64,000 bases of DNA, taken from a virus. Taxonomy: Duplodnaviria; Caudoviricetes. Under the pieces are notes generated by a model. That model was not told the DNA's origin. It did not search any database and was given only the letters and a program-made list of their open reading frames with translations. This document shows, in pieces, positions 16,490 to 53,238 of this stretch. Made by a program: the position numbers and the translations under genes. How positions within the stretch are numbered: the first letter of the stretch is position 1; every line of letters starts with the position of its first letter. The stretch spans positions 320,001 through 384,000 of the IMG/VR virus record IMGVR_UViG_3300011989_000257. One strand, given 5' to 3'.

Positions 16490-18133
16490 TTAATTAGTAG
16501 GTACGTCACCTTTTGCTTGGTTTAACCTATTATCATAATCTTTAACGGAGTGCGCTATTGCATTTCCAGCCGAACCAAGCACTCTACCCATAATAGTATC
16601 AGAAGTCCAATGCCATCTTGCAATAGTTCTATTTATTGCAAATTGGTTGGCTGCTTTCATTATCTTGTCAGCTTTATTTGGCATCAACTCAATCAAAGTC
16701 AATGCTCCACTCCATATTCCGCTTGAGTGTCCAGATGGATACGAGTTCGCTGGTAAAGAGTTCTTTTGCGCTTCACAATAATCCGACTTGGTATTTCCTT
16801 GGATATATGTGTAACCAACAAAGTCACCATTGGTATTATATGTCTTATATTGATTTGATGAAACACATCCATCACCATCTTCTATACCTTTATCACATAG
16901 TTCATTCCTCCTATCATCTATTTCTGAATTCTTTTTTGCTTCTTGCTCCCAAGAACAACCAGGTCTTAATCTTCCATATTGTTTTGGGTTCACATATGGA
17001 GAAAGTAATATCTTACGGTAATCACTTCCAACATCCACCATTGCATTTATCAAATTTGGTAAATTACCAGTGTCGTTTAACCTAACGCCTATTGTGTCAG
17101 TACCGAATACTGGGTGAAAAGTGTATGTACCAACAGTCCTATTGTCACCAAATAAATGTTCATTGCAAGCCTCTTTATCAGCAATTGCTTGAACTGTCAT
17201 TTGTTTTATATTAGAGTCGCTAGAATTAAGGTTATATGTTTCGACTATATGTTCGTGAATAGTTCTATCTACCTTTGTGTTACTGTATTCTTCTTTTTCG
17301 TCTGGAATAATATTTGAAGGTCTAGATTTATATCCTGGTGCGTAAGGTCCTGGGGCAGTCGGCATAAATTCCCTTAAATCAGTATAGAACCCATTTTTAT
17401 TTATCACGTAATTCTGTATTGCGCTTTCACTCTCTAAAGATAATTGCCTATAATAATCAAGGGTTTCACTATACTTGCTTCCACCTACTTCAGTTCTCAT
17501 TGTAGAAATGTTAGGACTCATTTTGCCTCTCATTGCTGCATATATTCCAGATGCTACAAGCCTAGCAACGTTTGGGTCTGTTTTGAACTTATACCCAAAT
17601 ACATTGCTTTTGTTAGTATACCCTCCAAGTTCATATCCAGTCTTAAATATGGCAACCCTGTTACTAGGTTTCAATTCTGCAAGTTGCAGTGCGAATAACC
17701 ATCCAATAAGTGTGTCAAACGCCTTTTTCTCTGTGCCATCTTCGCCATAATAATTATATACATTTGGAAAGTTTTCTTCTTTATATAATTTAGGCAAATC
17801 CTCTTCAGTGCCACCATCAAATTGTTCCTTTGCTTCGGCATATAATTTACACAAGTAATTATATGTGTTTTCATTTGGGTTAAATGTGTGTCCAACAGCC
17901 GTTTCAAATGCTTTTATATAGTCATCACAATCAGTTGGAGTTGGTGGTGTTGGACCTGGTGGAGTAGGTGGAGTTGGTTCACTTCCAACTGTAAACATTG
18001 CACTTGCTGAACAACTTTCACTAGTATATTTCACTATGTATGTATTTCCATCTGACCCATCAAGGAAAGTTGCTTTACCAGTATTTGAATCAAATTTTAC
18101 AAAATCTGTTGGACTAATTGACCAATTTCCCAT
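16490..18133 (-). CDS. Class A acid phosphatase/PAP2-superfamily enzyme fused to the shared N-terminal module via a Pro/Thr linker
   Basis: KQYGRLRP, SYPSGHS and NRTIARWHWTSD (RX5HX3D) motifs; N-terminus MGNWSISP..D..TG.ATF. Confidence 0.85.
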   Translation of the reverse strand: MGNWSISPTDFVKFDSNTGKATFLDGSDGNTYIVKYTSESCSASAMFTVGSEPTPPTPPGPTPPTPTDCDDYIKAFETAVGHTFNPNENTYNYLCKLYAEAKEQFDGGTEEDLPKLYKEENFPNVYNYYGEDGTEKKAFDTLIGWLFALQLAELKPSNRVAIFKTGYELGGYTNKSNVFGYKFKTDPNVARLVASGIYAAMRGKMSPNISTMRTEVGGSKYSETLDYYRQLSLESESAIQNYVINKNGFYTDLREFMPTAPGPYAPGYKSRPSNIIPDEKEEYSNTKVDRTIHEHIVETYNLNSSDSNIKQMTVQAIADKEACNEHLFGDNRTVGTYTFHPVFGTDTIGVRLNDTGNLPNLINAMVDVGSDYRKILLSPYVNPKQYGRLRPGCSWEQEAKKNSEIDDRRNELCDKGIEDGDGCVSSNQYKTYNTNGDFVGYTYIQGNTKSDYCEAQKNSLPANSYPSGHSSGIWSGALTLIELMPNKADKIMKAANQFAINRTIARWHWTSDTIMGRVLGSAGNAIAHSVKDYDNRLNQAKGDVPTN

Positions 18134-18330
18134 TAATTATTCTCCTCGTATTTTAAATAAATAATTGTTGTATTGTCAGGTTTATTGATTCTGTTAACCT
18201 CAACTATCTTACCACAACTCTTTTTATTATTTTTTAATAATATATTAAATATTTTAAATAATATATTATATATAATATTATAAATATTCTTAAATATATT
18301 CATATATTTTAATAATTTTAAGTATAAATA

Positions 18331-18362
18331 TTTGTTTTTTTAATATAATTTATATATCTTTG
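18331..18362 (+). promoter_or_regulatory. Bacteroidota-type promoter for the SbcD-like gene
   Basis: TTTG-N20-TATCTTTG. Confidence 0.85.
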
Positions 18363-18379
18363 CAAAAAGTAGTTAAAAA

Positions 18380-19213
18380 ATGAGTGACATTAAACGTATA
18401 ATACACATTGCAGACGTACATATGAAGAACTTTCAACGCTTGGAAGAATATTCAGAACAATTAACGAAAGTGGTTGATAAATGTAAAGAAATTGCATCAA
18501 ACTATAATAAAGATGAAATTCGTATTGTAATTTCTGGAGATTTATTACATAGCAAAAACAACATAAGCCCAGAGTTAATTGTGTTTTCAAGTTTCTTCCT
18601 AAGACAATTAGAAGAAATTGCAAAGGTATACGTCATTGCTGGAAATCATGACCTTATAGTAGAAAACAAAAGCAGAACTGATGCTATAACTGCGATATTC
18701 GACACTGCTGAATTTGAGAATTGCACATTCCTTGATGCCGAATTCGGATATAAAAGCGGATGTGCAATAGATGAAAATGTTGTATGGTGTTTATATTCAA
18801 TTTATGAAGATTTCAATAGACCAACAAATATTGATGAAATAAAGAAAAATAATCCAAACTATAAATTCATTGGACTATTTCATGGACAAATCATAGGTTC
18901 AACGCTTAATAACGGATATGTATCAGACAGTGGTCTTGATGGTGCTGAATTTGAAGGTTGTGATTGTGTAATGGCTGGACATCTTCATAAACGCCAAGTT
19001 ATAAAAAGAGGTGACTGCGTAATAGTTTATCCAGGTTCATTGATACAACAAACATATGGAGAAACAATATCTCAACATGGTTTTGCAGTATGGAATATAG
19101 AAGATATGTCCTATGAATTTGTTGATATTGATAGTAATTATGGCTTATATGATATTGAAATAAACGATATTTCGGATATTGATGAAGATAAAGAAAGGCT
19201 GATTAATTTCTAA
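18380..19213 (+). CDS. Mre11/SbcD (T4 gp47-like) metallophosphoesterase, recombination nuclease
   Basis: HIADVH, SGDLLH, AGNHD, FHG, GHLHKRQ, YPGSLIQQTYGE. Confidence 0.9.
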   Translation: MSDIKRIIHIADVHMKNFQRLEEYSEQLTKVVDKCKEIASNYNKDEIRIVISGDLLHSKNNISPELIVFSSFFLRQLEEIAKVYVIAGNHDLIVENKSRTDAITAIFDTAEFENCTFLDAEFGYKSGCAIDENVVWCLYSIYEDFNRPTNIDEIKKNNPNYKFIGLFHGQIIGSTLNNGYVSDSGLDGAEFEGCDCVMAGHLHKRQVIKRGDCVIVYPGSLIQQTYGETISQHGFAVWNIEDMSYEFVDIDSNYGLYDIEINDISDIDEDKERLINF

Positions 19214-19224
19214 TCAGCCTTTAA
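19193..19224. terminator. Bidirectional hairpin between convergent genes
   Basis: AAAGGCTGATTA-ATTTC-TAATCAGCCTTT. Confidence 0.7.
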
Positions 19225-19231
19225 AATAGAT

Positions 19232-20893
19232 TTATTGTATTCTAAATTGAATTTCATTTCCTATTGTGATATTAGGAGGCGTTATTATATTACAATTATG
19301 TTTTCCATCTTGACGGACTATAATGTCATCAGTACAGTTTCCAATATATATTGTGATGACATCTTCACGAGTATAATCTGTTTTTTCAACAGATAAGCCT
19401 ATAATGCCATCATCTAGCAAATCGTCATCAACCAACTTTACCCACCAAGGTAATTCAAAAAATACTTCTTTACCTTTACATTCCGTATTGGCTGATAATT
19501 GATAAGTGCCACCGCTTGCATCAAATGTTATTACATCAGCACTGAAACAATTGGTACATGTTTCTTTACATATTGTCTTATATTGGTTATAAGTAAATTC
19601 GACTATATTAGAGCATCCACTGCTAGCACATCCACCACTCTCCTTGAAAGTATAACTTATATTGCCACCACTCCAAACGCAGTCTTCAGCTTGCTTTATT
19701 GTAATACCACTTGATGGTATGTCATCATATTTAACAACAATTGTGGATTCAGAACCGCTAACACATTCGCCGCTATATGGTGGTATTGTGATGATATCTT
19801 CCCAAGTGTTTCCACTTGTGACAGCAGACGTACAATCATCATAGCATACATATGTATCATATCTCCAACGTAGTCTCACATTATCGCCATAAGATGGGAA
19901 TATGTAATTAGCAGGTAATTCTTTGCCATCCATCGTATATGCTGAAAAACTGTCCTTAACGATGCAATAACTAGTCCCAGCCGTGCATACTTGTCTGCAA
20001 TCATCTCTAGTATAGTCCCTATTACGTGTTATACTAAGTGGAATAGTTGTTGCACTACTTCCATTAATACATGATGCGTGGTCATTCCATGTATAGGATG
20101 AAACAATGTCAGACGTTATACAACATGCACTAGTTTCTTCACAATTTGGTATAGTCCAAGGTATCCTTTTACTTCTGCCATATGTAATCTTGGAGTTACA
20201 TTTGTCATCAGTATCAATCATCTTATAATCGAAATAGAAATATATTGTTCCACCACTATGTTCAACCTCAGTTATCTGTGTTCCACTAGAACCACTTGAA
20301 TCAACATATATGACATCACCTATCTCATAGCATATACCACTAGGTTTATCACAACATGTGTCTGGCATCTTGACATAAAAATCTATATCTTTTGTTTCGC
20401 TACCACATCCAATTGTTATAGCACTAGTTATCACTCTGCTATCAGCACTACAAGGCTTGTTTGTTTCGCTTGCAGTGAAGGTACATATGGCAGACCCACT
20501 AACCTTATGTCTAGTTATTTCACAATCTGCTTCATTATACTGCCAATAGGTGTAATATACGTTACTAGTACTGTCTGCGCTATATGGGATATAATATGGT
20601 GACACATACATGTCTATGAGTTCACACCAATTACTAGTTGGACATGGGTCACAATCTGTCCTAGGTAATTGGGTGATGACATATGAAATTGTTTTTCCAG
20701 ACCAATCAAATTGTCCACTATACGAGTGTTTACTACAATCACCAACGCCTATATAAATAGACTCACAAAACGTTTCCTCAACATCACCAAAACACCCACT
20801 GTCATCACCATTTACAGCAATCCAGCAAATGTTAGCATATGCACTGTCTGCCTCAACTGTCACTTTAATTGGTAATTCTGTCTTAATGTCCAT
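19232..20893 (-). CDS. Cys-rich putative virion protein with a C-terminal BACON-like domain
   Basis: ITFDASGGT...LPWWV...SVEKT...RE..ITI...IIVRQDG; very high Cys content. Confidence 0.7.
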   Translation of the reverse strand: MDIKTELPIKVTVEADSAYANICWIAVNGDDSGCFGDVEETFCESIYIGVGDCSKHSYSGQFDWSGKTISYVITQLPRTDCDPCPTSNWCELIDMYVSPYYIPYSADSTSNVYYTYWQYNEADCEITRHKVSGSAICTFTASETNKPCSADSRVITSAITIGCGSETKDIDFYVKMPDTCCDKPSGICYEIGDVIYVDSSGSSGTQITEVEHSGGTIYFYFDYKMIDTDDKCNSKITYGRSKRIPWTIPNCEETSACCITSDIVSSYTWNDHASCINGSSATTIPLSITRNRDYTRDDCRQVCTAGTSYCIVKDSFSAYTMDGKELPANYIFPSYGDNVRLRWRYDTYVCYDDCTSAVTSGNTWEDIITIPPYSGECVSGSESTIVVKYDDIPSSGITIKQAEDCVWSGGNISYTFKESGGCASSGCSNIVEFTYNQYKTICKETCTNCFSADVITFDASGGTYQLSANTECKGKEVFFELPWWVKLVDDDLLDDGIIGLSVEKTDYTREDVITIYIGNCTDDIIVRQDGKHNCNIITPPNITIGNEIQFRIQ

Positions 20894-20899
20894 TGGTTA

Positions 20900-23800
20900 T
20901 TATCGTTTCTCGTATCTTATTTGTAATATTGCTGTTGAAGGTATCATCTGTGTGAGATAGTTCATAACAATATCGTCAATGTATTTCATCTCACTTGCAC
21001 CAATATCAGTTAATTTACCATTTTTAATCAAAACTTCATGTAATCTGAATGTAATTCTAATTACCTTAGTATTGAAACTACAGTTCGTTATCTCATCCTT
21101 ATGTTCGTTAACAAAGGCGTGTATTTTAGAATCACCTATATCAGTTGTTATTGAACTGAACCCATATCCATTGATGGTGTCACGATATGCATCAAAGTCA
21201 TTATAACATCTCTCATCGAACAAATCGTTTTCCAATGCGTATTTGAACAAATGCTTGTAATATTCAAAATATTCCTCACCATTGTCATACCTCATCATGC
21301 CATTATGAGGGTTGTTGCCCTTATTGCCGTTGATGATAGTGTTAATCATCTTGTACTCCCTATCGCCCAACGATAAGCGTTTCCAACCATTTCCTCCTAA
21401 TCTGTTTGAATAAGAGAAATCATTTATCTTGAAATAGTTCGTATAGTTCTCTGCATTTGGGTCAATGACAACAAACTGGTCACTACAGTTTTTAGTATCG
21501 TCATAGCATTGTATTCTGCCATTCACTATATAGCAGTTTATAGGCTGTCCATTTGGTATTTCTCTTATATTGATGCTTTTAACTGTTCCATATCTATCAT
21601 AGACTCTAATAACATCATCAAAGAAGTAGTCATCTCCAGCTTGAACAACGCCATTCGCTTTTATAAGCTCAATGTATTTTCCAAACCTATCAGATTTAAT
21701 GTTATAGACTTTTCCAGCAAGTACTGCAATATTATCTTGTATATTTGTGACATATACAATCTGGTCATCATGTATCTCATATGATGGAACTGACAACATA
21801 TCTTGCAATGTGTCAAACCTTCTTATATTCCTTACAGTTTCCTTGAATAAATCATCATTTTTAATATATATAATGTTATTGTCTGCATCAAATTGGAAAC
21901 CATAATAATTTCTACCATATTTGAATTTCTTATCTTCCCATCCTCCATTCATCTGAAAATAGAAATCACCGTCATACTTCTCGTACTTCTCGAAATTAGG
22001 ATATAGGTATCGTTTTCCATCCTTATCCTCATATTTCACAGGAAGTCCTTGATATGGGATATAATCAATGTCAGAGCCATCTCTATTGTAATTGGATATT
22101 GACCTATAATCATAGGTTATTGTCTTTGTAGAGTTAACCCAATCTATATGGTACATCTGATGAGGTGCGTCCCAACAATCGTCTATTGGATTTGTTTTAG
22201 CTATGAACTCTTCTATCTTGTAATCATAATCTTTATTATAGCACGCATTATCTCCATTTTTTTTTCTATCAACCCATTTTTCATTCCTTAGTCCAAACAT
22301 TCCAAGAATCATATCAATTCCTTCGATTGTGCCCTTATGACGCCAGATGGCACGAGAATTGAGTTTAAGCCTCCTCAAAAACTCGTTATTGACATCATGG
22401 TATGAATATACCCTTTCGTCAGAATATGACCTTATACGATTCCTTAAAATTGGAGATTTCGCACATTCGTCAAACATAGTATATTGGTTCGCACTTGCAG
22501 AAATCTTCTTATATTGCCCATTGCTATATTCACATGGAGTTTCCCCACTAGAACAGCAACTGATGAAATATCCATACTGGTCTTCTAACAAGTCTTCAGT
22601 ATAAGGAGTTACATCACCACTAGCATCAATGAAATGTGTCTCTATGGTTTCACAGTCACTATTATTGAATACAGAATTCCCACTTAAATTAAATGGTGTC
22701 ACCAACGAAACGTTCCACCCTTCATTCTCAACAGTGTCAGTCAAGAAATAGTCTGGAAGATTTCCTCTTTCGTCATATGTAACCCTATTAAGATTCTTAA
22801 TGTTGTTAATATATGATAATATCTCATCGAACTCCCTTGCAAACACTCTAAGTGCTTTCTGAACTTTTTCACCACCAAGAACGTACTCTTCCTCATCACC
22901 TTCCACAAACTCACGTGTATAAGTCCAGTCGAAGTTCTTGATTGCCTCATGGGTCATAGACCTATATAGGTTATCAGTGAAGAACTCATCGTAGAATTCT
23001 CCAATCTGTGAAAGTCTTGTCGTATATGTATTAAACCCATAAGATGTTGCATCTATATTGTATCCACCTTCAGATGTAGGGAATATGAAATCCTCGAATT
23101 CCCTATAATACCCGTTTTCATTCTCCTTGATAACTGAAAACGTTGCTTTATATTTAGGGGTAGACTTTGGATTCAGAATCAACCTTTGAAAATTATCGCA
23201 TTCATTATAGAATTCATCTAGATACTTTTTGGTTGGGCGAATATGCAATTCATTCAAACCAGTAGTTCCAGATTCTTTTTCATATAAATAATAAGGGATA
23301 TCATCATCACCAAGAAATACTCCTATATCATATTTTATTGATGGTGTTCCAACATGATTTAAATCTAATGCCCCAATACGCTCACCTTTACAAGGATAAT
23401 ATGTCACTATAGGAGTACCACTAGAGATTGTAGTAGTAACTTCACTTTCATTTATTTCTGTTATCGCTGAATATGGTATATATTTTTTGCTTTTAGAATC
23501 ATATTCTGAATAGAAATTATAGATTTTCATATCATTTATTTGATACTCTTCTCCATTTTCATCGACATATACATAATTTTTGTACCCACCTTCTGCAAAA
23601 TATTTTAATGGATTTACATCTTTAGGAAGCTTGGTTGCATACATATTTATCCCAAACGGATTCGTTAACAGATGCAAATCTGTTTCATGTGTTGTATAAC
23701 CAGTTATTCTTCCTTCAGCATCCCTACTAGGTATTTCACTGCCCAATTTTCTTCTTGTCTCTATTTGCTCTCCGTCTATCGTCTCATATGTAGTATAATA

Positions 23801-24238
23801 TACATCATAATCAGTACCGTATAATTCCCCTGGAAATCTTGCGATGGCATCAGTTATGGATGCACGGAACATCTCAGACAATGAGCCATAATAGCAGAAG
23901 TCACGGAAATCATAGTAATCTTGCTTAAGTACTATCTTCGTATCATTCTGCGTATCATCTTGAGAAACCATCCCACTGACTGCTGTTGCTGTCCATACAT
24001 CGCCACTAGACTTGTTCTCAGTCCATTTTTTTCTGTTGTATTGGTTGGATATACCACCATCATCCCTTACCGTAATAATAAAGTTATTACTACGATAGAT
24101 TGGTTTCTGTCCTTGAGCAAACTGATTCAAACCACCAATGGTTGTAATATCCCTTTCAAAAATGGTACTACCATCCCCAAGTGCTTGATGCTTTGACTTC
24201 AATACATAATTACTATGACTCTTTATATATTTTGGCAT
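20900..24238 (-). CDS. Large virion structural protein (baseplate wedge-like)
   Basis: Contains RHKGTIEGIDMILGMFG, a KGT..I motif seen in baseplate wedge/tail I-like proteins; lies in the structural operon. Confidence 0.6.
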   Translation of the reverse strand: MPKYIKSHSNYVLKSKHQALGDGSTIFERDITTIGGLNQFAQGQKPIYRSNNFIITVRDDGGISNQYNRKKWTENKSSGDVWTATAVSGMVSQDDTQNDTKIVLKQDYYDFRDFCYYGSLSEMFRASITDAIARFPGELYGTDYDVYYTTYETIDGEQIETRRKLGSEIPSRDAEGRITGYTTHETDLHLLTNPFGINMYATKLPKDVNPLKYFAEGGYKNYVYVDENGEEYQINDMKIYNFYSEYDSKSKKYIPYSAITEINESEVTTTISSGTPIVTYYPCKGERIGALDLNHVGTPSIKYDIGVFLGDDDIPYYLYEKESGTTGLNELHIRPTKKYLDEFYNECDNFQRLILNPKSTPKYKATFSVIKENENGYYREFEDFIFPTSEGGYNIDATSYGFNTYTTRLSQIGEFYDEFFTDNLYRSMTHEAIKNFDWTYTREFVEGDEEEYVLGGEKVQKALRVFAREFDEILSYINNIKNLNRVTYDERGNLPDYFLTDTVENEGWNVSLVTPFNLSGNSVFNNSDCETIETHFIDASGDVTPYTEDLLEDQYGYFISCCSSGETPCEYSNGQYKKISASANQYTMFDECAKSPILRNRIRSYSDERVYSYHDVNNEFLRRLKLNSRAIWRHKGTIEGIDMILGMFGLRNEKWVDRKKNGDNACYNKDYDYKIEEFIAKTNPIDDCWDAPHQMYHIDWVNSTKTITYDYRSISNYNRDGSDIDYIPYQGLPVKYEDKDGKRYLYPNFEKYEKYDGDFYFQMNGGWEDKKFKYGRNYYGFQFDADNNIIYIKNDDLFKETVRNIRRFDTLQDMLSVPSYEIHDDQIVYVTNIQDNIAVLAGKVYNIKSDRFGKYIELIKANGVVQAGDDYFFDDVIRVYDRYGTVKSINIREIPNGQPINCYIVNGRIQCYDDTKNCSDQFVVIDPNAENYTNYFKINDFSYSNRLGGNGWKRLSLGDREYKMINTIINGNKGNNPHNGMMRYDNGEEYFEYYKHLFKYALENDLFDERCYNDFDAYRDTINGYGFSSITTDIGDSKIHAFVNEHKDEITNCSFNTKVIRITFRLHEVLIKNGKLTDIGASEMKYIDDIVMNYLTQMIPSTAILQIRYEKR

Positions 24239-24240
24239 AA

Positions 24241-25155: not shown

Positions 25156-25168
25156 GTTCTCTTATCTA

Positions 25169-33268: not shown

Positions 33269-33272
33269 TTAA

Positions 33273-36200: not shown

Positions 36201-39200
36201 TGTTCCACCACTTATCTTACCATTGGTTGATTTCAAGCCTGAGATTTCAAATACATATTCACCTTCATCACTTGTTTCTCCTGATTCAAAGCTAGTGGTA
36301 CTAGAAATTGGACAATCCATACCATCGATTACAATGTCATCGATTTCAATCCTTCCATAGAATTCATTATCTTCATCGCATATATATTCCTTTGGAGAAT
36401 TGGCTACATCATAAAATTTAGTGCCAAGTTTATAGGATGCATAATTCAAAGAAAGAGTTGGCATACTAAGTTCAATTCTTCTGTTAACCTTCTTACCGTT
36501 ATCATCCATTACAACCAAGTTATACGTTTGATTGGTAAGACCAGAAAGTCCGTACTCATTCTCAACTATCACACCATCTTGGTATTTAACTTTACCATCA
36601 CCATCATTACTAACATCACCAATAGTAAACGTTAATGCTGTCATATTGGTTTCACCTATAACAACTTCGCCATACGAGTCATATAATGTATATGAATAAG
36701 GGATTTGTATATCATCAAGTTCTACCTTTATATATCCATAAGAATCTGTGATGCTAGAATATGCTGTAGGGCAGTATGACTTGCCCTTAGTATCAAGGTT
36801 AAGCGAGAATGGTTCAATTTCGTTGCCAACACAATCTGCCATGTATAGGTTATTGAACTTATCAATTGCGGTATTTCCTTTGTTTATGCCAAAATAGAAA
36901 TAGAATGAATTGTTATACAAAGGAAAGTGGAAAGCATCTCCCTCTTTATAGTAGAAATGCCTGTATCTTCCATGAGCACCTTCTTTATCGCCACCAAGCC
37001 TAAATGTTAGATACGCTTGGTCTTGCTCATCATACATTGCTTGTTCAAACCCATTCTGGTATCTCTTCATTATCTCATCCATTCTGCCATCAAAGTCTGT
37101 TGGATAAATGAACCTGAACTTAGGAACAAGATATGTTGTATTCTCATCTTCAACTTGTGTTGTATATCCGCTTATACTATCTTGATATGCTTGCGGCACA
37201 AAACCAATGTGATTTAACGTTGCGAACATTGCACGATTATCCATATCATCAAGTTCATACTTGGTGATAAAACCGTCAGCCTCGATTACACCTCTTTGTA
37301 TATTATTGCCATTCCTTGAATAAGACATATTGTATGTCATGTCAAGGTTAACACCTAATTCACTAAGTCTCTCCACGTTAATGCAAGACTTTAGTTTTGT
37401 GTCTGCGTATGTACAAGCAAGGTCTAAGAGTAGACCACTTCCATAAGTAGGTACTGCCTCATCTCCACCTCTACGCCAAACCATACCATTAGTAATGGTT
37501 GTACCGCTATCTTCACTTTGTGTAGAATCGTATTTGTTGTTTTCTACCTTCTTATCTTCATCCTCTAGACTTTCTTCTATTGAGGCAATTGGTGGTATAT
37601 TTGCTGTTGTTGATGGCAATACTTTAAAGAACTGAGGTATACCATACAGATTGTCCTCATTCAAGTTACCCAATAGTATTATGTCAGTCGCATATAGTCT
37701 TATCACAAAGAAACCTTCTTTACGAGTTTCAATTGGTTCATAATAGTTATCATCAGTAGGCTGCATCGCAACATAATAATATGCAGTCAAGCCATCCTTA
37801 TTGGTAACACCCTTGATAAGACCATTTGGAAAACGGACACCACCAGACCTACTTCTATGCCATCTATCTTCTTCAGAACTACTAGCAGATGATTCAACAG
37901 TCAAGTTTTCATCTTCATATGGGATATCGCAAGTGAAATATGTCTTAAGCCTACTGTATGTCCTATCACAATCGCAAAACTCATTCTTTGCGCTACTGCT
38001 GAACAAACCAAACAAGAATGTCTTCTTTTTTCTTTTTCTCCAATACCATAGCGGCATGTAAAGGCAACCATTCACCCAATCTTGATGGAAATCCAATTTA
38101 ACCACATTATATTGGAGTGCTAGATTTTCTTGGATGATGTCTAGTAATTCGCCCATATTCTCACTCTTCCTACAGTTTGGTACTTCTGGGTCACAATCAG
38201 CGGCATCTTTTCCCTTACCACAATAACACCCAGGAAGATACATTACATTGCCTTCAGTTAAGCCAGCTGCCAATTGAACACAAGCAATATATGGTATATC
38301 TGGAATCCATTTAAACAAATACTTAATAGGCCAAGGCTTCTTTAATAATCCAAACACATTGTTAATCAATTGAATCATTGCATTCAATGGGCAAATCAAC
38401 GTTGCATTTATAAATGCTATGATAACCATTACTATAGTGAATAGGATGCACACAATCATATACATAAATGGTATTTCAATCTGCATCTTATTGAATGGTA
38501 TAGGATTTTGGTTATCAGTGATATTACTCCCTTTCAATGAGCCATAGTTAGGTGAATATGGTCTATGTGCCACTTGTACCTTTGGTATATAGTTCTTTAC
38601 AGAATATACATTATTCCAATAAAGGTCACGGAAACAACTTTGTGGTGTATTTGAACCGAAGTTATACAAACGTTCAAAATTAGCGCCATCAAGTAATGAC
38701 TTTGGCTTCATTTCATCTTCCTTTATAGGAGGATTCATTGGTACAAGGTATTTTGCTGTATGACGAGATACACCTTCATCACCAGTTTCTGTTTTACTGA
38801 ATCTAAACCTTACTTGTGTCCTTGTAGGGATACCCTTATTTGGGTTATCTGTTGGTATTATGTTACCGTATTCATCAGTACCTATATAATCTAGGTTCAT
38901 TGGAATCTGATAGCACCACACGCCATCACTGTCAATAAGCCTATTTCCTTGAATCTGGTATTCTTCAACAAGTCCATCAACAGTTTTACGAATCATCTCA
39001 ATTGTGCCTTCTCCAGCAACCAATTGATTGTTCATGCCGTTTTCTTCAGATGGGGCACATTTATGCCCTATTGCATTAGCCTCATTGTCAGATATGATTG
39101 CACCCATGAATATACAAGTTGGTTCAAATTTATAATCAACTTGCACATCGCATCTCGTAATCGATGCAATACCATTCTCAATATCACCCCAGAATGGATA

Positions 39201-39857
39201 AACAAATACGCTCTTATTCTGTGATATTATCTGCCTCAGATTATCAAGGTTAGTGCTAGACTTAAATTGATTTGCATTATCGAATTCAGTCATATTATAT
39301 CCTTTATATAGGAAATCACGAGGTTTTTGGGATAATATACCAATGTCCGAAAGGTCAATATCAGTGTGAATCTGTTGAGAACCCGTTGGGATGCCAAATA
39401 TCATGTAATCACCCGCATTGTTGGTAACTGTAGTATATTTCCAATATTTCTCATATACCTCAAGATATGTATCATCATCCAATAATAATCTCTTATTAGG
39501 GAATGTTCCAACAATTCTATAACATTCGTCATCACTATAATCTGGCAACAAATTATATCTTATGTTTTTCCTATCCTTTGTTGTGACATCATTATAAGGA
39601 TATATATTCTCAATTTCGGTGGTATCACTGTTATCTCTCTCGATGAATATGGAAACCTTTGCATTAGGAATACCAAATGCATCATTAGCAAGAACCCTTC
39701 CAACTATAACGCCATAGTTGGAAGAGTGTATCTTATAAGCATCCTTCTGGGCAAGTTTCAATGACAACACTTCAAGAAACTCAAAGTCTTGTTTCATATT
39801 AACATTGAGAACTGTATCCTTAGATATATTAGTATGTATTCTGTATGATTTATCCAT
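33273..39857 (-). CDS. Very large tail/baseplate protein with an internal hydrophobic segment
   Basis: 2194 aa; N-terminal carboxypeptidase-regulatory-like pattern (YGVIVGRV..GIPNAKVS); hydrophobic stretch FMYMIVCILFTIVMVIIAFINATLICPL. Confidence 0.6.
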   Translation of the reverse strand: MDKSYRIHTNISKDTVLNVNMKQDFEFLEVLSLKLAQKDAYKIHSSNYGVIVGRVLANDAFGIPNAKVSIFIERDNSDTTEIENIYPYNDVTTKDRKNIRYNLLPDYSDDECYRIVGTFPNKRLLLDDDTYLEVYEKYWKYTTVTNNAGDYMIFGIPTGSQQIHTDIDLSDIGILSQKPRDFLYKGYNMTEFDNANQFKSSTNLDNLRQIISQNKSVFVYPFWGDIENGIASITRCDVQVDYKFEPTCIFMGAIISDNEANAIGHKCAPSEENGMNNQLVAGEGTIEMIRKTVDGLVEEYQIQGNRLIDSDGVWCYQIPMNLDYIGTDEYGNIIPTDNPNKGIPTRTQVRFRFSKTETGDEGVSRHTAKYLVPMNPPIKEDEMKPKSLLDGANFERLYNFGSNTPQSCFRDLYWNNVYSVKNYIPKVQVAHRPYSPNYGSLKGSNITDNQNPIPFNKMQIEIPFMYMIVCILFTIVMVIIAFINATLICPLNAMIQLINNVFGLLKKPWPIKYLFKWIPDIPYIACVQLAAGLTEGNVMYLPGCYCGKGKDAADCDPEVPNCRKSENMGELLDIIQENLALQYNVVKLDFHQDWVNGCLYMPLWYWRKRKKKTFLFGLFSSSAKNEFCDCDRTYSRLKTYFTCDIPYEDENLTVESSASSSEEDRWHRSRSGGVRFPNGLIKGVTNKDGLTAYYYVAMQPTDDNYYEPIETRKEGFFVIRLYATDIILLGNLNEDNLYGIPQFFKVLPSTTANIPPIASIEESLEDEDKKVENNKYDSTQSEDSGTTITNGMVWRRGGDEAVPTYGSGLLLDLACTYADTKLKSCINVERLSELGVNLDMTYNMSYSRNGNNIQRGVIEADGFITKYELDDMDNRAMFATLNHIGFVPQAYQDSISGYTTQVEDENTTYLVPKFRFIYPTDFDGRMDEIMKRYQNGFEQAMYDEQDQAYLTFRLGGDKEGAHGRYRHFYYKEGDAFHFPLYNNSFYFYFGINKGNTAIDKFNNLYMADCVGNEIEPFSLNLDTKGKSYCPTAYSSITDSYGYIKVELDDIQIPYSYTLYDSYGEVVIGETNMTALTFTIGDVSNDGDGKVKYQDGVIVENEYGLSGLTNQTYNLVVMDDNGKKVNRRIELSMPTLSLNYASYKLGTKFYDVANSPKEYICDEDNEFYGRIEIDDIVIDGMDCPISSTTSFESGETSDEGEYVFEISGLKSTNGKISGGTVYLHFSTIEAERYDEIKECLCGEPDEPRVSVKTEGEGENQRSYIQFNVYKPKRYMMELKQCCAESGEAETCTELEENKTSEIVKVPNGENFNTFLNTMPTRFMLGTNNDDSHASIANGNYFYRSEHVSNATDEGVRGWFGVHQEDTYRFNDTVSENEIIWEDFIKFGGRRITDPVAKLSIIDYKFDKMFSLSNAVYVSGEFRYTSVGGVQPTLYRSVTPYYGNSRTANSQYVFGDTNYVTVTRQLPNIIGNNYAIYGDDEARSGIPTFNDFYNNTDKLGNYFAAFTNDGGYINKKEIDPKEVVIKSPSYALVNVNENTKPKGKQEKGSITSFPYAYDKDEGKKSQPYLRALTVDRRLDYDLTFIGPAVGTKFNLYEHNDESKDMDKLWKSARVFGTFYNGIEMSYDEDYNIISAETIVDSATTDIISASANTFLEYSYSISSGETDAITIYNEPTDVFWERDLASGYTPTDGETMNKRFYEASLLGVDIRDYFWSTFNKNRLSKYVASGQPSYDSSGYTPYVFLYPSGQASYYNGDFNRDDAVMSNKYPTRRYVDICNILPMGSYSMTITPCSYGGVRSVINEDSTITAEAKEGEGIDVDLSFENPIRFMQYPSEKNDVGNVEYSLGENGSDYTRFNASVANLYFTLNKTISDEFDVYTALPRVIKVLPYIDGVDGITYFKTATPTGEIKASKTVDEAINDVTLYKFDGGFYLYLFGIDLRDVILPDGISIETNSLIGANDQKILDDFSSFWEESSESFITTDNDNFDKIAFRTSINLDDVKVFSILVDKYCVDNSNSRLTKKVRTIETSELFDARDILMKFVSGTESAPLSYVEAKDMKLSGGTEEIQYIQTTAFEIKVDAANGNPTSIANQAFASFDSMSFTLVFDDYTTQYQVGCQVSGESENDNSMIVRISGKWTPEMGTLLDSGKQWRCYLMAKTSSGFSYKIGPFMLSGNSKELPEKDHFTITEAQIII

Positions 39858-39864
39858 AAATTAC

Positions 39865-40107
39865 CTATTTCTTTCTCATATATTTTGACATGAACTCTGG
39901 TAATACAATTGGTTCACTATTTTTGAAAATCATTTTATATAATGCAATTATAATTATGGTAGGAGCTACTACCATTGTGATTAATATTGCAAACGTAAAA
40001 ATCATTATTCTATATGATAATCTAAACCCCTTTTCTAACGTGGTCTCTTCTTGAGGAACACCATATTTGTCCTCAATTTCAATCTTTTTCTTACAATTAC
40101 ATGCCAT
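39865..40107 (-). CDS. Small membrane protein with N-terminal MACNCK
   Basis: Hydrophobic IMIFTFAILITMVVAPTIIIIALY. Confidence 0.7.
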   Translation of the reverse strand: MACNCKKKIEIEDKYGVPQEETTLEKGFRLSYRIMIFTFAILITMVVAPTIIIIALYKMIFKNSEPIVLPEFMSKYMRKK

Positions 40108-40127
40108 AACACTATTTTCGTTAACAA

Positions 40128-42113
40128 TTAAATGGTTTTAACCCTAATTTTTATATCATCTCCATCTGGATTCTTTATCTCATACATGCTGTTGTAATCA
40201 CTATACAAAACTTTATCAGTAGCATTTAAATCCAATTGTTTTTGTCCCTCAAACATGCTTTCAGTAGGAGTGTCACAGCTACTACCTTCCACTATCGTTG
40301 GTAAAGGGCATATATCTTCACTATAGCCGTTGCCGTGCAATGTATACACTTTAAGGCTGATGATACTGATTACGCCATCTTGCGTATTGATTTCTTTCTC
40401 CAAATCACCGACAAATATATCCTCACCCATGTCATGATTATTAACATTGAAATAATCCTTAATCTTCTCTATGACATTTGAAACGACATTGGCTGTGTTG
40501 TAATTTTTGTCAGTAAACAAATCAACTGCAACTCCGATATTATAGATTCTTCCGCTTCTAATTTCAATGTAATCATTTATCTGCTTGTAATTGGTCATGT
40601 ACTCCTTTATATTATCAACCAATGTACTTGGTAGATAAGATGTCAATTTTCCTTCTCCATCTAGTCCAAGCATATCAATCTCTATCTTGTTATTAGTTTC
40701 CACAACACTGCTTCTGAATGGAGCACCATATTTAGGAGGCATCTGCATAAGTTTAACCTTATAGTCCTTAACAGTCACAGCACGGTTCTGTGATGATGTA
40801 TTGTACTTCATAAGAGCCTTTATTTCATCTGTTGATGGTTCGTCTTTACCAGCCAATGCTGTTGAAATATTTGTGACTTTCATGGAATTAATTACATTAC
40901 CTCTAATAGTACCGTTAGTACCTTCCACATTGCCCCAATCTATGTTTGCGACTGTAATTTTGTTGATTGAACCAGGTCCTAAATTAGTTGATATTCCTCC
41001 ACCTACACGATAAAGTATGAACATAGTCCATCCTTCTTTTGGTAGTACCCCTAACATATCATTATTAATAATTCTAGAGGCTATGTATTGACCATATGTT
41101 GTAGTATTACTAGGAACTGTCTCGTATCCATTTCCAGCACCAAATATTACCTTCATATAGCCATTATCTGTAAATTCCGTGATGAACTTCTGAGTTAATG
41201 GTTTCCACTTACCACGATAATATCTAGTTGTTCTTGTAGTGGTGCTATCACCCTCAGTATCATCATCATATACCTCTGGATTATATATATCCTTAATTAT
41301 ATTATTATCAATCTTATTGAATTCGCTTCCAAACCTCCATTGGTCTGCCAATGAATCACATTCAAAAAAACGATATGTCATTACAGCAGCACTTGTAGTC
41401 CTAAATTCTTCAGAATCAATATAATATTCATATATCTCTGGATTTTCATTAAAATCAGAAGATTCTTTAAATATTATTGATTCTACATTCATAACATTTG
41501 ATTCTGGCAATACAAATTCCATAAACGGCTGAAGGTCTGATGAATATATAACTTTCTTATATACCTTGGTATTTCCATTTACAGCAATAGTAGACTTGGT
41601 AACAGTATATCCTGTAATATTACCATTATTGTCTCTAGACGCAACTATTTTTCTATTAGAATAGCCATTCTCATTGAATTGTTCAGCAAAATTCACATTT
41701 TCCATTAGTTCAAAGTTATATGCCCCAGCAGAAACGATACTAGTTTTCTGTAATATTGGAGCATATTGCCAATCTGGGACAGATATATTTGTACTATTAA
41801 CTGGCAGTTCACAACTAATTTCTATTTCGCATGTAGATGCTTTACGTCCTGGAATCTTCAATCCATTAGTTCTAGCCATATTCAATACAGTGCTTCTAAG
41901 ATTCGCACTATCAAGATTAGTTTCTTGGTACATTCTATCCGTATGGTAACTTAAGTCATCACCAACTGCTGAAACAAGGTCGATAAACCATGAACCAATG
42001 CTAGAATCATTAAAATCATTGAATATTTCTGGATAATATTGATTACTGAATTTTAATAATTCTTCTTTTATACCTTCAAAATCTCGTTGCAAATAATTTA
42101 TCTTTTTTTCCAT
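40128..42113 (-). CDS. Baseplate wedge subunit (T4 gp6/baseplate J-like)
   Basis: INY..RDF..IK..L, S.G..FIDL.S.VGD.LSY, QNRAVT..DY. Confidence 0.88.
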   Translation of the reverse strand: MEKKINYLQRDFEGIKEELLKFSNQYYPEIFNDFNDSSIGSWFIDLVSAVGDDLSYHTDRMYQETNLDSANLRSTVLNMARTNGLKIPGRKASTCEIEISCELPVNSTNISVPDWQYAPILQKTSIVSAGAYNFELMENVNFAEQFNENGYSNRKIVASRDNNGNITGYTVTKSTIAVNGNTKVYKKVIYSSDLQPFMEFVLPESNVMNVESIIFKESSDFNENPEIYEYYIDSEEFRTTSAAVMTYRFFECDSLADQWRFGSEFNKIDNNIIKDIYNPEVYDDDTEGDSTTTRTTRYYRGKWKPLTQKFITEFTDNGYMKVIFGAGNGYETVPSNTTTYGQYIASRIINNDMLGVLPKEGWTMFILYRVGGGISTNLGPGSINKITVANIDWGNVEGTNGTIRGNVINSMKVTNISTALAGKDEPSTDEIKALMKYNTSSQNRAVTVKDYKVKLMQMPPKYGAPFRSSVVETNNKIEIDMLGLDGEGKLTSYLPSTLVDNIKEYMTNYKQINDYIEIRSGRIYNIGVAVDLFTDKNYNTANVVSNVIEKIKDYFNVNNHDMGEDIFVGDLEKEINTQDGVISIISLKVYTLHGNGYSEDICPLPTIVEGSSCDTPTESMFEGQKQLDLNATDKVLYSDYNSMYEIKNPDGDDIKIRVKTI

Positions 42114-42502
42114 TATACTTGTACTACTATGCTGTCATTAGTTATTTTATTCCCTTCTGTAACACTATAATCAAGTCTCACATATATTTCTGATTCATCT
42201 TCTTCATTCTTAACCACTTGTATATTGTTAAGTGTTATATCGTTAGACCACCTTCTAACTGATTCACTCACTTCATTTTTAACTGATTCCCATGTCACCC
42301 CTTCATTTGGGTCAAATATGAATTTGATAAGGTCTGTTCCAAACTCAGGCAGCCTAATCCTCTGCCCTTTAGGAGTGAATACGATATGCATAATCTCGCT
42401 TCTAGCCTTTTCCTTTGGAGTATCGTTTGTGTCGATGAAAAAGTGCTGAAATCCATCTGTACGAAAAGGGTATTTTATACCAAAATATTGTCTTTTAGCC
42501 AT
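42113..42502 (-). CDS. Baseplate wedge subunit (T4 gp25/GPW-like)
   Basis: GIKYPF...TPKGQRIRLPEFGTDL..FIFDP. Confidence 0.9.
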   Translation of the reverse strand: MAKRQYFGIKYPFRTDGFQHFFIDTNDTPKEKARSEIMHIVFTPKGQRIRLPEFGTDLIKFIFDPNEGVTWESVKNEVSESVRRWSNDITLNNIQVVKNEEDESEIYVRLDYSVTEGNKITNDSIVVQV

Positions 42503-42623
42503 TATCTCAAAAATTATTTATAATAAGTATATAAAAAATAATTTTTTAAACCATTAAAATAAATAAAATTTAGGTAAATACCTTTTAACGAAAACTACTA
42601 TTTATTAAAAAAAATATACAAAC

Positions 42624-44564
42624 ATGAGTACAGGATTAATAGTTTTAATTGTTTTCATCATCCTTATAATAGGATGTGTTGTTTGGTTCTTTATAAATAA
42701 TAAGAAACCAGACCCAACACCAGTACCTGATACTGGTGACACCCCTGACACAGGAGACACACCAACACCACCTACTCCAGACCCTGACCCACAGCCAGAC
42801 CCTGACACTGGTGACACACCTGACACTGGAGATACACCAACTCCTCCAGAACCAGAACCTCCTTGCATTTGTGAAAGTGAGACACATAGAATTCAAGATT
42901 CTATACCATCAGGTGTAACATCTGAGCCAATACAAGTTGGTACATATGACAATGGCAATATGTGTGAATGCACGTGGTCTGTCATAGGAGTGAAGACTGG
43001 TGAGGATTTCCTTAAGGATTTCAAATTCGAAGACGGAAAGATATTCGCCATCGTGTCAAAGACTAATGACGGTGAGGAAAGAACCACAAGATACATAACA
43101 CATCTAGAAGGTGAGAATGTATCTAAGGATGACTATTTCGATGTAACCCAGAAAAGTGGTATTGACAAGGAATTTGAGACATATGTCGATGCGTTCAAGG
43201 AATATGCTGTCATTGCTAGAAGCGGTGCAACATATAACTATCTGAAGGTGTTATATGATGAGGCAAAGAATCAGTTCAACGAGGTTGACTCTACAAATGG
43301 TGTACCACAGTTATACAAAGAGGAGAATTTCCCTAACATATATAACATATACGGCAACGATGGCACAGAAAGCAAGGGATTCATCAGTATGGTGGGATGG
43401 TTATTTGCACTTCAATTGTCAGAACTAAAGCCAAGATACAGGTCATATATGCTTAAGATTGGCTATGAACTTGGTGGGTATGACAGATATTCAAACATAT
43501 ATGGTTATAAGTTCAAGGCAGACCCTAATGTGGCAAGATTGGTTGCTTCCACACTATACAGCAGTATGAGGTCTTTGAAGAAACCTAATGTTGATGCGAT
43601 GAGGGCTGAAATTGGTGGTAGCAAATATGACCAATCTCTTGAAGTATTGAGTAAAAGCAGCAGAGATGCTGTGAGCAAGGGAGATTTCTTCATTGACTTC
43701 AGGAAGTTCCTTCCAACAGCGCCTGGTCCTTATGCTCCTGGATATACAACACGTCCTGATGAGACATTCCCAAATGAGAAGAAGGAGAGCAACAAGAACT
43801 TGTCAGTAGATGCTGCAATACACGAAATGGTTGTGCAGACATACAATATGAACAGCGTAGAATATTCTGCAAGCAGTGTGCAAGCAATTGCTGATGAGGA
43901 ATGCTGTAAGTATCACGTATTTGGCAAAGATAAGGTAATAGGTCAATACAAGTTCCATCCAGTATTTGGAAAGGAGACCATAGGCACTGAAATATCTCCT
44001 GATAAATATGTAGGGGGATTGGCTGAGCTTATGCTTTATGTTGCAAGCGCATCAAGGGGTATAATGCAGAGTGCCACTGTTAACCCTAAACAATATGGTA
44101 GATTAAGACCTGGCTGTTCTTGGCAACAAGAGGCGAAAAAGAACTCTACAACCGATGACAGAAGAAACGTATTGTGTGAGATTGACATTGAAGACAATGA
44201 TGGCTGTAAGGAGACTGCAAACTCAGTAGGATACTACAACAAGGATGGCGTTTGGGTATACACGCAAGCACAAGAGGACAAGTATTGCGAGACGAAGAAG
44301 AATTCGCTTTATGCCAACTCATATCCTTCAGGTCACTCAAGTGGTATGTGGGGCGCTGCAATGATGCTTGTTGAATTGTTCCCAGAGAAGGCTGACAAGA
44401 TTATGAAGGAGGCAAACCAGTTCGCTATCAACAGAACTATTGTAAGGTGGCACTGGACTTCAGATACAATTAACGGTAGGGTGCTTGGTGGAGCAACACA
44501 CGCTGTATGTCACGCAACAAGCGACTATGATACAATGTTAAATAAGGCTAAGAAAGAGCTTTAA
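42624..44564 (+). CDS. Membrane-anchored class A acid phosphatase/PAP2 enzyme (TM, Pro/Asp/Thr linker, BACON-like domain, catalytic domain)
   Basis: N-terminal hydrophobic helix; KQYGRLRP, SYPSGHS, NRTIVRWHWTSD; paralog of 16490..18133. Confidence 0.88.
   Translation: MSTGLIVLIVFIILIIGCVVWFFINNKKPDPTPVPDTGDTPDTGDTPTPPTPDPDPQPDPDTGDTPDTGDTPTPPEPEPPCICESETHRIQDSIPSGVTSEPIQVGTYDNGNMCECTWSVIGVKTGEDFLKDFKFEDGKIFAIVSKTNDGEERTTRYITHLEGENVSKDDYFDVTQKSGIDKEFETYVDAFKEYAVIARSGATYNYLKVLYDEAKNQFNEVDSTNGVPQLYKEENFPNIYNIYGNDGTESKGFISMVGWLFALQLSELKPRYRSYMLKIGYELGGYDRYSNIYGYKFKADPNVARLVASTLYSSMRSLKKPNVDAMRAEIGGSKYDQSLEVLSKSSRDAVSKGDFFIDFRKFLPTAPGPYAPGYTTRPDETFPNEKKESNKNLSVDAAIHEMVVQTYNMNSVEYSASSVQAIADEECCKYHVFGKDKVIGQYKFHPVFGKETIGTEISPDKYVGGLAELMLYVASASRGIMQSATVNPKQYGRLRPGCSWQQEAKKNSTTDDRRNVLCEIDIEDNDGCKETANSVGYYNKDGVWVYTQAQEDKYCETKKNSLYANSYPSGHSSGMWGAAMMLVELFPEKADKIMKEANQFAINRTIVRWHWTSDTINGRVLGGATHAVCHATSDYDTMLNKAKKEL
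42708..42862 (+). repeat. Low-complexity coding repeat, (PDTGDT)2-PTPP duplicated
   Basis: PDTGDTPDTGDTPTPP occurs twice. Confidence 0.85.
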
Positions 44565-44600: not shown

Positions 44601-45221
44601 TCAATATATTGTCCAAATTTCCATAAATTTATTAAAATCATCGTATGGTATAATAGAATAACCATTATCGCCATAAGACCTTCCCCATGAATTCCTTATA
44701 ATAAATCCATCTTCATTATATCCGACAATGGCAACAGCATGACCACCTTCATAATCTCCATAAGCACTATCCCAAAATTCAGTTACCCTTGAATCGTATA
44801 CTGGTAATGCCCCTACACATGGTCCATTTAATATAAGGGCTTGTTTTAAACAAATCATACTACCAATTGTGGCATATCTATCTATAGTCTCAACACCTTC
44901 CTTAGTTGATACACCCTCATGTTTTAAAAACTTAAGTCCATCCTTAAACGTCATTCCTTCACTGCTTTTAACAGAACTGCTGTCAAATATCTCTTGTAAA
45001 TCAACTTCATTATCGACTTTATTTTCTCCAGTATCTGTATTTATTACCCAATTTATATAGGCAGACAATGAGCAAGGAACGCATATAGGCTTATTTCCTT
45101 GGTCAATAACTGATGGAAGGTATTTCTTGTATGAATACTCAATTGGTATTTCAAAGTCCCTAATTTTCTTGAACTTTGTTTCAGACCCATCCATCTTCGA
45201 AGGTACAAATCCGTAATTCAT
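44601..45221 (-). CDS. Papain-like cysteine peptidase (C1 family)
   Basis: DQGNKPIC (oxyanion Gln and catalytic Cys), GGHAVAIVGY (His), IIRNSWG (Asn). Confidence 0.9.
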   Translation of the reverse strand: MNYGFVPSKMDGSETKFKKIRDFEIPIEYSYKKYLPSVIDQGNKPICVPCSLSAYINWVINTDTGENKVDNEVDLQEIFDSSSVKSSEGMTFKDGLKFLKHEGVSTKEGVETIDRYATIGSMICLKQALILNGPCVGALPVYDSRVTEFWDSAYGDYEGGHAVAIVGYNEDGFIIRNSWGRSYGDNGYSIIPYDDFNKFMEIWTIY

Positions 45222-45550: not shown

Positions 45551-45562
45551 ATCTATAAATAT

Positions 45563-53201: not shown

Positions 53202-53238
53202 TAAAATTAATATTTATTGTTAAAAATATTTTTTTAAA

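Follow-up and report, generated by a model that had tools for sequence, protein, structure and literature searches.

The window analysed here, a stretch of 64,000 nucleotides (nt; bases 320001-384000) of the 412,514-bp tailed-phage record IMGVR_UViG_3300011989_000257 (GC content 34.5%), encodes two open reading frames (ORFs), P0001 and P0002, that carry the same enlarged acid phosphatase domain in two different settings. In P0001 the domain is preceded by a small module found on fibre-block proteins of the phage, and in P0002 by a transmembrane (TM) helix and a long linker. Judged from their conserved residues, both proteins are very probably active phosphatases or phosphotransferases with a modified phosphate-binding pocket. 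We propose that the phage deploys working enzymes in two ways, as a tethered default form and as a virion-mounted form, acting on an envelope glycoconjugate; taken as a whole this proposal stands in even balance, and its parts are graded separately below. The enzyme class and modular fibres were already known. What is new is an enlarged branch of the class-A non-specific acid phosphatases (NSAPs), the phosphatase payload and its proposed two-way deployment.

BLASTP aligns residues 90-544 of P0001 with residues 203-646 of P0002 (259 of 458 positions identical, 57%; E 0.0), and all the identical blocks quoted in an earlier, sequence-only description of the window (the first-pass annotation) are visible in this common catalytic region. 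A tblastn search of the whole genome found only two copies of the domain, those of P0001 and P0002. Pfam and PDB sequence searches recognise PAP2/class-A acid phosphatase only in the last 90-140 amino acids (aa), with PAP2 (PF01569) scores of 42.2 bits for P0001 and 45.8 bits for P0002 against a threshold of 27.2; the sequence matches are PhoC, PhoN and the E. blattae NSAP. The AlphaFold model of the P0001 domain, computed with 83 homologues as input, has a predicted local distance difference test score (pLDDT) of 93.9 and a predicted template modelling score of 0.95. Its best structural match is PhoN (2a96; Z 18.6, root-mean-square deviation (rmsd) 2.5 Å, 210 of 219 residues aligned), and model residues 156-482 superpose over about 210 residues on PhoN, PhoC, the E. 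blattae NSAP and the Shigella enzyme with Z scores of 17-18.6. Thirteen NSAP entries score above Z 14, while the next class (membrane PAP2 enzymes and vanadium haloperoxidases) remains below Z 10. The match to PhoN and the strong conservation of the catalytic residues bear out the PAP2/class-A fold assigned at first pass. The N-terminal helical part of about 155 residues, searched within the whole-domain model, gave no convincing structural match. The enzyme most likely represents a branch of enlarged class-A NSAPs in which this helical extension precedes a PhoN-like core, and which is common to rumen Prevotella, as a stand-alone lipoprotein, and to large phages of a T4-like clade.

Conservation was counted in an alignment of the 83 homologues, whose identity ranges from 28 to 98%. 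R388, R390, P391, S467, G468, H469, S470, R502, H508 and D512 are invariant, as are D289, Q315, I417 and G516. The S, G and H of the PSGH motif are thus found in 83/83 sequences and its P in 82/83. The residue preceding the Arg of motif 3, a Ser in the SRX5HX3D definition, is Asn in 56 of the 83 and Ser in 17. The one-residue offset of the motif-1 Lys noticed in the first-pass annotation is present in both proteins, which read KX5RP and not KX6RP; in its stead there is an invariant Arg (R388) two residues before R390. A 37-aa query around motif 1 found no match among PDB sequences, and the offset is to be read against the motif definition, not against an alignment with PhoN. Strict membership of the class by motif therefore fails because the Lys spacing is off, although the nucleophile, the proton donor and the arginines are strongly constrained. 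The PhoC equivalog NF045654 gives 88 and 85 bits against a cut-off of 430. Class-A NSAPs are characteristically secreted, periplasmic proteins of about 230 aa with a cleaved signal peptide, and here the domain has 460 aa, without a signal peptide in P0001 and behind a TM helix with an inverted charge pattern in P0002. An argument for an extracytoplasmic site from disulfide bonds was discarded, since the homologues do not consistently keep the Cys residues of the insertion, four in number (C393 in 57/83, the others in 14-21/83).

The N-terminal module of P0001 had been described as shared with two BACON-repeat proteins and followed by a Pro/Thr (PT) linker. Sequence matches confirm both: the module is similar to the first residues of P0125 (5943-8159; E 2e-5) and of P0123 (14314-16473; E 0.012), with the linker at residues 53-68. 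Of all ORFs in the genome, only P0001, P0123 and P0125 match the start-anchored pattern M[GAS]xWx[IVL]xP. A profile of the module retrieved 27 database proteins in which it is always located at residue 1, with payloads that are either BACON arrays or PAP2 domains. The module is modelled as five strands with a pLDDT of 91. P0123 is separated from P0001 by 16 nt and no terminator-like site is found until beyond its end; P0001 is probably co-transcribed with P0123 as the first gene of the unit. The strongest single result comes from L110, a locus of a phage with roughly 90% identity, in which the flanks are 85-97% identical in nucleotides on both sides of the phosphatase gene. Homology extends through the upstream genes and the first 188 nt of the gene, that is the module and the PT linker; past this point it is lost, to return only with the following gene. 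In L110 the payload, P0277, is again a PAP2 protein, about 20-35% identical to that of P0001, with RLRP, PSGH and Rx5Hx3D and an extra C-terminal domain. One phosphatase has thus been replaced by another at the linker, as would be expected if diversifying selection acts on a fibre cassette with a receptor-binding or enzymatic role. P0001 therefore combines a module shared with fibre-block proteins and a payload exchanged at the linker; forms of this kind with the P0001 catalytic type are rare. No signal peptide or other export signal was identified in P0001. Its mounting on the virion together with the fibres is probable, because the protein would have no exit except with the particle or at lysis and because the module, the transcription unit and the cassette swap point the same way.

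P0002 represents the membrane-anchored form. Among about 120 close homologues, 99 have one N-terminal helix of about 21 hydrophobic residues. In 93 of these 99 no Lys or Arg precedes the helix, an acidic residue is found there in 13, and the following 10 residues contain on average 3.4 Lys/Arg. The linkers after the single helix are acidic, Pro-rich and 50-250 residues long. A two-helix subgroup has a Lys-rich N-terminal tail and a Lys-rich stretch after helix 2. By the positive-inside rule the catalytic domain would be cytoplasmic in either layout, an arrangement like that of ZipA, and because the charge patterns of the single-helix and two-helix variants agree, an orientation with the N-terminus outside and the C-terminus inside (C-in) is predicted for the P0002 type; we regard it as the likelier one, with some reserve. 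The TM helix, basic cluster, PDTGDT linker and adhesin-type repeat listed for P0002 at first pass were all recovered, and only the BACON label of the repeat is without support from Pfam, since BACON (PF13004) does not score on P0002. The repeat is similar to residues 312-388 of P0123 (E 1e-12; 2e-13 with phmmer), a protein that itself scores BACON at residues 166-210 (33.7 bits). The position of the P0002 gene, divergent from gp25, is kept in the syntenic relative G001. Among phages, anchoring is the default or ancestral state of the enzyme.

One anchored and one non-anchored PAP2 protein were found in 4/4 large genomes inspected. Copy numbers for L001 and L004 are taken from locus tables only. 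In G001 (412,753 bp, syntenic, 66-81% nucleotide identity) a third module-PAP2 protein, P0276 (696 aa; L002:7308-9398, +), which is likewise very divergent, is encoded 14 nt upstream of the TM-PAP2 protein P0013 (770 aa; L002:9413-11725, +) on the same strand; P0013 has a 131-aa C-terminal extension and the pair adjoins gp25. A 268-aa ORF similar to the BACON fibre protein P0123 follows the pair. G002 (129.5 kb) combines a 563-aa TM form with a PAP2 domain embedded in a protein of at least 1779 aa, and a 435-kb phage combines a TM form with the TM-less P0274, which is fused to a C-terminal Laminin_G_3/concanavalin-like lectin. P0274 (L020:9836-11836, +) is a third PAP2 type, 27% identical, and adjoins an ORF with weak tape-measure similarity. 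Relatives with one copy and no conserved architecture had been named at first pass as evidence that would speak against a paired system; instead, G001, G002 and the 435-kb phage are all paired, and a module-PAP2 gene occupies the same fibre slot in L110 and L111. The fusion partners differ by clade: the fibre-type repeat in the P0002 clade, Big_2 in the two-TM clade and the lectin in P0274. The phylogenetic tree places the P0001 clade (support 1.0) within a group of TM forms from other phages (0.996) and apart from the P0002 clade (0.989). A recent duplication of P0001 and P0002 within the genome is ruled out by this topology. As far as the tree tells, the pair is assembled by exchange and not by recent duplication, because the P0001 clade groups with TM-anchored enzymes of other phages and not with the P0002 clade.

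Both phosphatase genes are preceded by the heptamer TATTTAT that had been noticed earlier, at 24 and 19 nt before their initiation codons. Raw counts reveal no enrichment of the heptamer in the window (45 observed, 45.5 expected by chance). Its sense-strand occurrences genome-wide peak 21-30 nt upstream of start codons, with 31 in that bin against a background of about 2, and 59 of 468 genes bear it against 23 for the antisense control. The element also precedes the major capsid and portal genes. TATTTAT is a candidate core of the late promoter of this phage, and both phosphatase genes are probably late. Other examples in the window are found at 45555-45561 (-) and 53211-53217 (+).

In the arrangement that we favour, P0002 would be tethered by its single N-terminal helix and a long flexible linker with the enzyme at the cytoplasmic face of the inner membrane, in a ZipA-like manner, while the P0001 cassette would be carried on the virion with the fibres via the 52-aa module and the PT linker. 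On the cell surface, the particle copy would take off or transfer phosphate while the phage adsorbs or is released; the tethered copy would target the same chemistry from within the infected cell at a late stage. Because the domain is repeatedly fused to modules of glycan-binding type, we infer as its substrate an envelope glycoconjugate that bears phosphate, or the lipid-linked precursor of such a molecule, and not free nucleotides. Candidate benefits are adsorption, escape from decoys, removal of the receptor from the dying cell and an aid to lysis. The two-location dephosphorylation system suggested at first pass is retained in so far as the two architectures are real; its surface-anchored receptor destroyer is weakened, and the family-wide charge statistics favour the cytoplasm-facing alternative. 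A more specific version, which we consider unlikely, is that one phosphorylated envelope glycolipid or polysaccharide receptor is edited from both sides. The fibre copy would work outside, where surface dephosphorylation could permit irreversible binding or escape from vesicle and debris decoys; the leashed cytoplasmic copy, guided by its fibre-type repeat, would attack the inner-leaflet lipid-pyrophosphate precursor late in infection, so that the dying cell stops displaying the receptor.

Several points weigh against the proposed deployment. Regarding catalysis, Lys384 of motif 1 is kept in only 33/83 homologues, the KX6RP signature of class-A NSAPs is absent, and the reaction may differ from that of PhoN; class-A NSAPs, moreover, are known for small soluble phosphomonoesters and not for glycolipids. 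Regarding the cytoplasmic location, every characterised class-A NSAP is, to our knowledge, periplasmic, and we know of no characterised membrane PAP2 enzyme that acts inside the cytoplasm. The cellular homologues from Prevotella carry lipoprotein export signals, and BACON and Big_2 modules are usually extracytoplasmic. A C-in PAP2 enzyme would lack precedent and the charge rule could mislead. Regarding the virion, a search for fold relatives of the 52-aa module found no specific one, only generic Ig/cadherin-like folds (best Z 5.1, Foldseek E at least 0.09), which leaves docking less secure, and P0123 and P0125 are themselves putative fibre parts. The late class depends on one sequence motif.

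Among other explanations, P0001 could be an off-particle, soluble cytoplasmic enzyme that shares a small Ig-like domain with its neighbours, in which case both copies would be intracellular. The missing signal peptide and the generic Ig-like resemblance of the module suit this possibility, which nevertheless appears somewhat unlikely: no ORFs other than the three of the fibre block have the module, which always begins at residue 1, the gene probably shares a transcript with that of a BACON fibre protein, its cassette behaviour is typical of receptor-binding proteins, and in other phages the domain is embedded in giant proteins of morphogenesis blocks. The anchored form could also be an auxiliary metabolic gene product, a periplasm-facing enzyme that replaces a host lipoprotein phosphatase and frees phosphate or nucleosides for replication of a 412-kb genome, the module copy having arisen incidentally when domains were shuffled. 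Scavenging in the periplasm is the role of class-A NSAPs, and phage genes for phosphate acquisition are known (pstS and phoA in cyanophages); the export signals of the cellular homologues and a Pro-rich linker that could span the periplasm agree with this. It is rendered distinctly unlikely by the charge pattern of the 99 single-helix and the two-helix variants, which predicts C-in, by fusion partners that are of glycan-binding and not of transport type, and by a late-type motif that speaks against a role in the replication phase; scavenging also leaves unexplained why the fibre slot still holds a phosphatase after its cassette was exchanged.

If the tethered enzyme does face the cytoplasm, as predicted, it might instead degrade second messengers, alarmones or nucleotide pools in counter-defence or host takeover, and class-A NSAPs and the Shigella apyrase do have a broad nucleotide substrate range. 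Such nucleotide or signal control has a slim chance of being correct: it accounts neither for the fibre-module copy nor for the fusions to BACON, Big_2 and lectin modules, the activities of PAP2 enzymes are those of monoesterases or pyrophosphatases and not of cyclic-nucleotide diesterases, and a late-type motif is unsuited to early counter-defence. Two further readings concern the domain itself. Receptor-binding proteins are often derived from enzymes and the canonical motif-1 Lys is displaced and variable, so the domain might be a non-catalytic module binding a phosphorylated receptor; this is very improbable, as His508 (the nucleophile) with its partner Asp512, His469 (the proton donor) and both Arg are invariant in the 83 sequences, a pattern that fits purifying selection on catalysis. 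A vanadium-dependent haloperoxidase would share the active-site motifs, a length of about 460 aa and an extra helical N-terminal part, and weak structural alignments reach model residues 90-473. We consider this identity extremely unlikely: in searches with the whole-domain model the Z scores are 6-9.7 against 17-18.6 for the NSAPs, the Foldseek probability is at most 0.35, the Asp of HX3D is invariant as in phosphatases, and the motif-1 Lys, needed for peroxide activation in haloperoxidases, is not conserved.

Compared with the class-A NSAPs (PhoN, Morganella and Klebsiella PhoC, the E. blattae NSAP and the Shigella apyrase-type enzyme; 2a96, 9qcj, 1d2t, 8yc1), the phage domain has a similar all-helical PAP2 core (rmsd 2.5-3.0 Å), PSGH and Rx5Hx3D motifs of the same kind, and RxRP. 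It differs in being twice as long, with the 155-aa extension, about 110 aa of insertions and 74 residues between motifs 1 and 2, and in being attached to a TM helix or a fibre module without a signal peptide. The integral-membrane PAP2 enzymes PgpB, BcrC, LpxE and LpxF belong to the same superfamily and have the same catalytic motifs. Their substrates, undecaprenyl pyrophosphate and lipid A phosphates, are of the envelope type proposed for the phage enzyme. They are multi-pass proteins with periplasmic active sites (Z 7-10), whereas the catalytic domain of the phage enzyme is soluble and leashed. ZipA is a bitopic N-out/C-in protein in which a short uncharged N-terminal tail, a TM helix, a basic cluster and a Pro-rich linker precede a globular C-terminal domain; the layout of P0002 is alike, its topology being predicted, and there is no sequence relationship. 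The nearest parallel for P0001 is found in modular tailspikes. Phage G7C gp63.1 is reportedly an O-antigen deacetylase tailspike, and multi-tailspike phages are said to combine a conserved N-terminal attachment module with enzymatic payloads. P0001 resembles them in its conserved N-terminal module, its interchangeable payloads and the linker break point between near-identical genomes, and its enzyme would likewise modify a surface polymer and not cut it. It differs in having a phosphatase as payload and, as module, a 52-aa Ig-like domain with a putative docking role.

The virion-borne enzymes known to us so far cut or de-acylate surface polymers. In Bacteroidota, variation of capsule and lipopolysaccharide decides which cells get infected, and if fibre modules carry phosphatase cassettes, phage-host recognition in this phylum would gain a new type of chemistry. 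The recurrence of the pair despite the swap of the enzyme cassette suggests that infection includes a step of phosphate removal that has not been described. Whether a PAP2 enzyme can work on the cytoplasmic side is the question posed by the conserved inverted charge pattern; two-sided editing, if true, would be the first case of a phosphatase borne on a virion and of a soluble PAP2 enzyme that faces the cytoplasm. The family is large, unannotated and spread over rumen and gut jumbo phages. As the host lipoprotein homologues are likewise uncharacterised, one biochemical study would annotate both them and the phage proteins.

A word-indexed search gave 291 matches to the family and an exhaustive search 552 representatives, none of them named; the contigs with close matches have T4-type genes and reach 442 kb in length. 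PHROGs has no family for P0001 or P0002. Neither megablast of 20 kb nor tblastn of the domain against 50,697 GenBank phage records returned anything useful, and BFVD had no match at E ≤ 0.001, with only weak rows for giant-virus membrane PAP2 proteins. In the searchable literature (phage, virion or jumbo-phage PAP2 or acid phosphatase, and jumbo-phage surveys) no virion phosphatase or family of this type was found described. The domain is also part of giant proteins (1,000-3,400 aa) encoded beside T4 gp2-like and portal genes in other phages. The product of L108:10001-20113 (+) in a T4-like phage has 3370 aa with 3-4 copies of the phosphatase domain and is encoded between a 450-aa ORF and the gp2-like and portal genes; L109 encodes a 2324-aa protein with a single phosphatase domain in the same gp2-like/portal context. 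Dozens of unrelated viral contigs (L026-L081, IMG/VR contigs of 6-276 kb) gave short PAP2 matches, which cover 60-80 residues in the region of PSGH and Rx5Hx3D at 30-44% identity. PAP2 genes may be commoner in uncultured phages than annotation suggests.

In bacteria the whole 460-aa domain was found in Prevotella sp. ne3005, RUG383 and further rumen Prevotella metagenome-assembled genomes (MAGs), with 45-51% identity (45-46% for ne3005 and RUG383) and a lipobox/lipoprotein signal peptide. Two rumen Prevotella loci, L088:7827-9365 (+) and L091:7851-9365 (+), encode lipoproteins of 504-512 aa with the full enlarged domain. These Prevotella lipoproteins (about 505-512 aa), which fall in an ESM Atlas cluster of Bacteroidota named "PAP2 superfamily protein", are uncharacterised; they have the extension in common with the phage domain and a signal peptide in place of its TM-linker or fibre module. 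Their neighbours are cellular genes (RecA, DnaK, amylase), and no conserved neighbour was found, the contexts differing between genomes. Tree support around the Prevotella branch is 0.5-0.86, too low to fix the direction of transfer. The host of the phage is probably a rumen Prevotella, because homologues of the domain are chromosomal in Prevotella isolates and rumen MAGs and because BACON is a Bacteroidota-type domain.

The source record is rated 100% complete by CheckV; no end repeat was found in its 412,514 bp and completeness rests on that estimate. T4-type structural genes of the genome include those of the gp23 capsid protein, a T4-type portal, and gp25 and gp6-like baseplate wedges, and relatives also have a gp13-like gene. 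The minus strand from 42502 down to about 5900 is a single long baseplate and fibre block with very large ORFs, among them a 1266-aa fibre protein with an S74 intramolecular chaperone and three BACON-scoring proteins. The features discussed are listed in Table 1.

Table 1. Positions in the window of the two phosphatase genes, their domains and motifs, upstream elements and associated structural genes.
Feature	Position	Strand	Remark
P0001, 547 aa	16490..18133	-	Fibre-type N-terminal module, PT linker and enlarged class-A acid phosphatase domain
P0001 N-terminal module, residues 1-52	17978..18133	-	Five-strand small Ig-like beta domain
P0001 Pro/Thr linker, residues 53-68	17930..17977	-	End is the break point of the payload swap relative to L110
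P0001 catalytic domain, residues 69-547	16493..17929	-	Helical extension of ~155 aa, then class-A NSAP core with insertions
P0001 motif 1, RLRP	16961..16972	-	Lys384 at KX5RP
P0001 motif 2, PSGH	16727..16738	-	Residues 466-469
P0001 motif 3, Rx5Hx3D	16598..16630	-	R502, H508, D512
TATTTAT upstream of P0001	18157..18163	-	24 nt before the start
P0002, 646 aa	42624..44564	+	TM helix, basic cluster, acidic Pro-rich linker, one fibre-type repeat and phosphatase domain
P0002 TM helix, residues 5-24	42636..42695	+	20 hydrophobic residues; no Lys/Arg before, NNKK after
P0002 PDTGDT/Pro-rich acidic linker, residues 29-79	42708..42860	+	
P0002 fibre-type (BACON-like) repeat	42861..43169	+	Homologous to P0123 residues 312-388
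P0002 catalytic domain, residues 184-646	43173..44561	+	RLRP 44100-44111, PSGH 44325-44336, Rx5Hx3D 44433-44465
TATTTAT upstream of P0002	42599..42605	+	19 nt before the start
Baseplate wedge genes (gp6-like, gp25-like)	40128..42502	-	Divergent from P0002; neighbourhood kept in relative G001
P0123, BACON-repeat putative fibre protein	14314..16473	-	N-terminal module of P0001; starts 16 nt after P0001
P0125, second BACON-repeat putative fibre protein	5943..8159	-	N-terminal module of P0001

The third BACON-scoring protein of the fibre block (8188-9933, -; 581 aa) is very Cys-rich and lacks the shared N-terminal module. Another very Cys-rich protein (19232-20893, -; 553 aa), with a BACON-like C-terminal end and a fibre-type look, has no Pfam or PHROG family and is 87-91% identical in L110 and L111. 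On the opposite strand within the block, 18380-19213 (+) encodes an SbcD/Mre11-like metallophosphoesterase of 277 aa, whose gene is directly upstream of the module-PAP2 gene in L110 and L111 as well. It was considered as a part of the phosphatase system and dismissed, as it has no export signal and resembles a DNA enzyme. Downstream of P0002, an ORF similar to papain-family (C1) peptidases (44601-45221, -), without a signal peptide, converges on the 3′ end of the P0002 gene, and a small ORF upstream of it (45224-45550, -) is likewise convergent with P0002.

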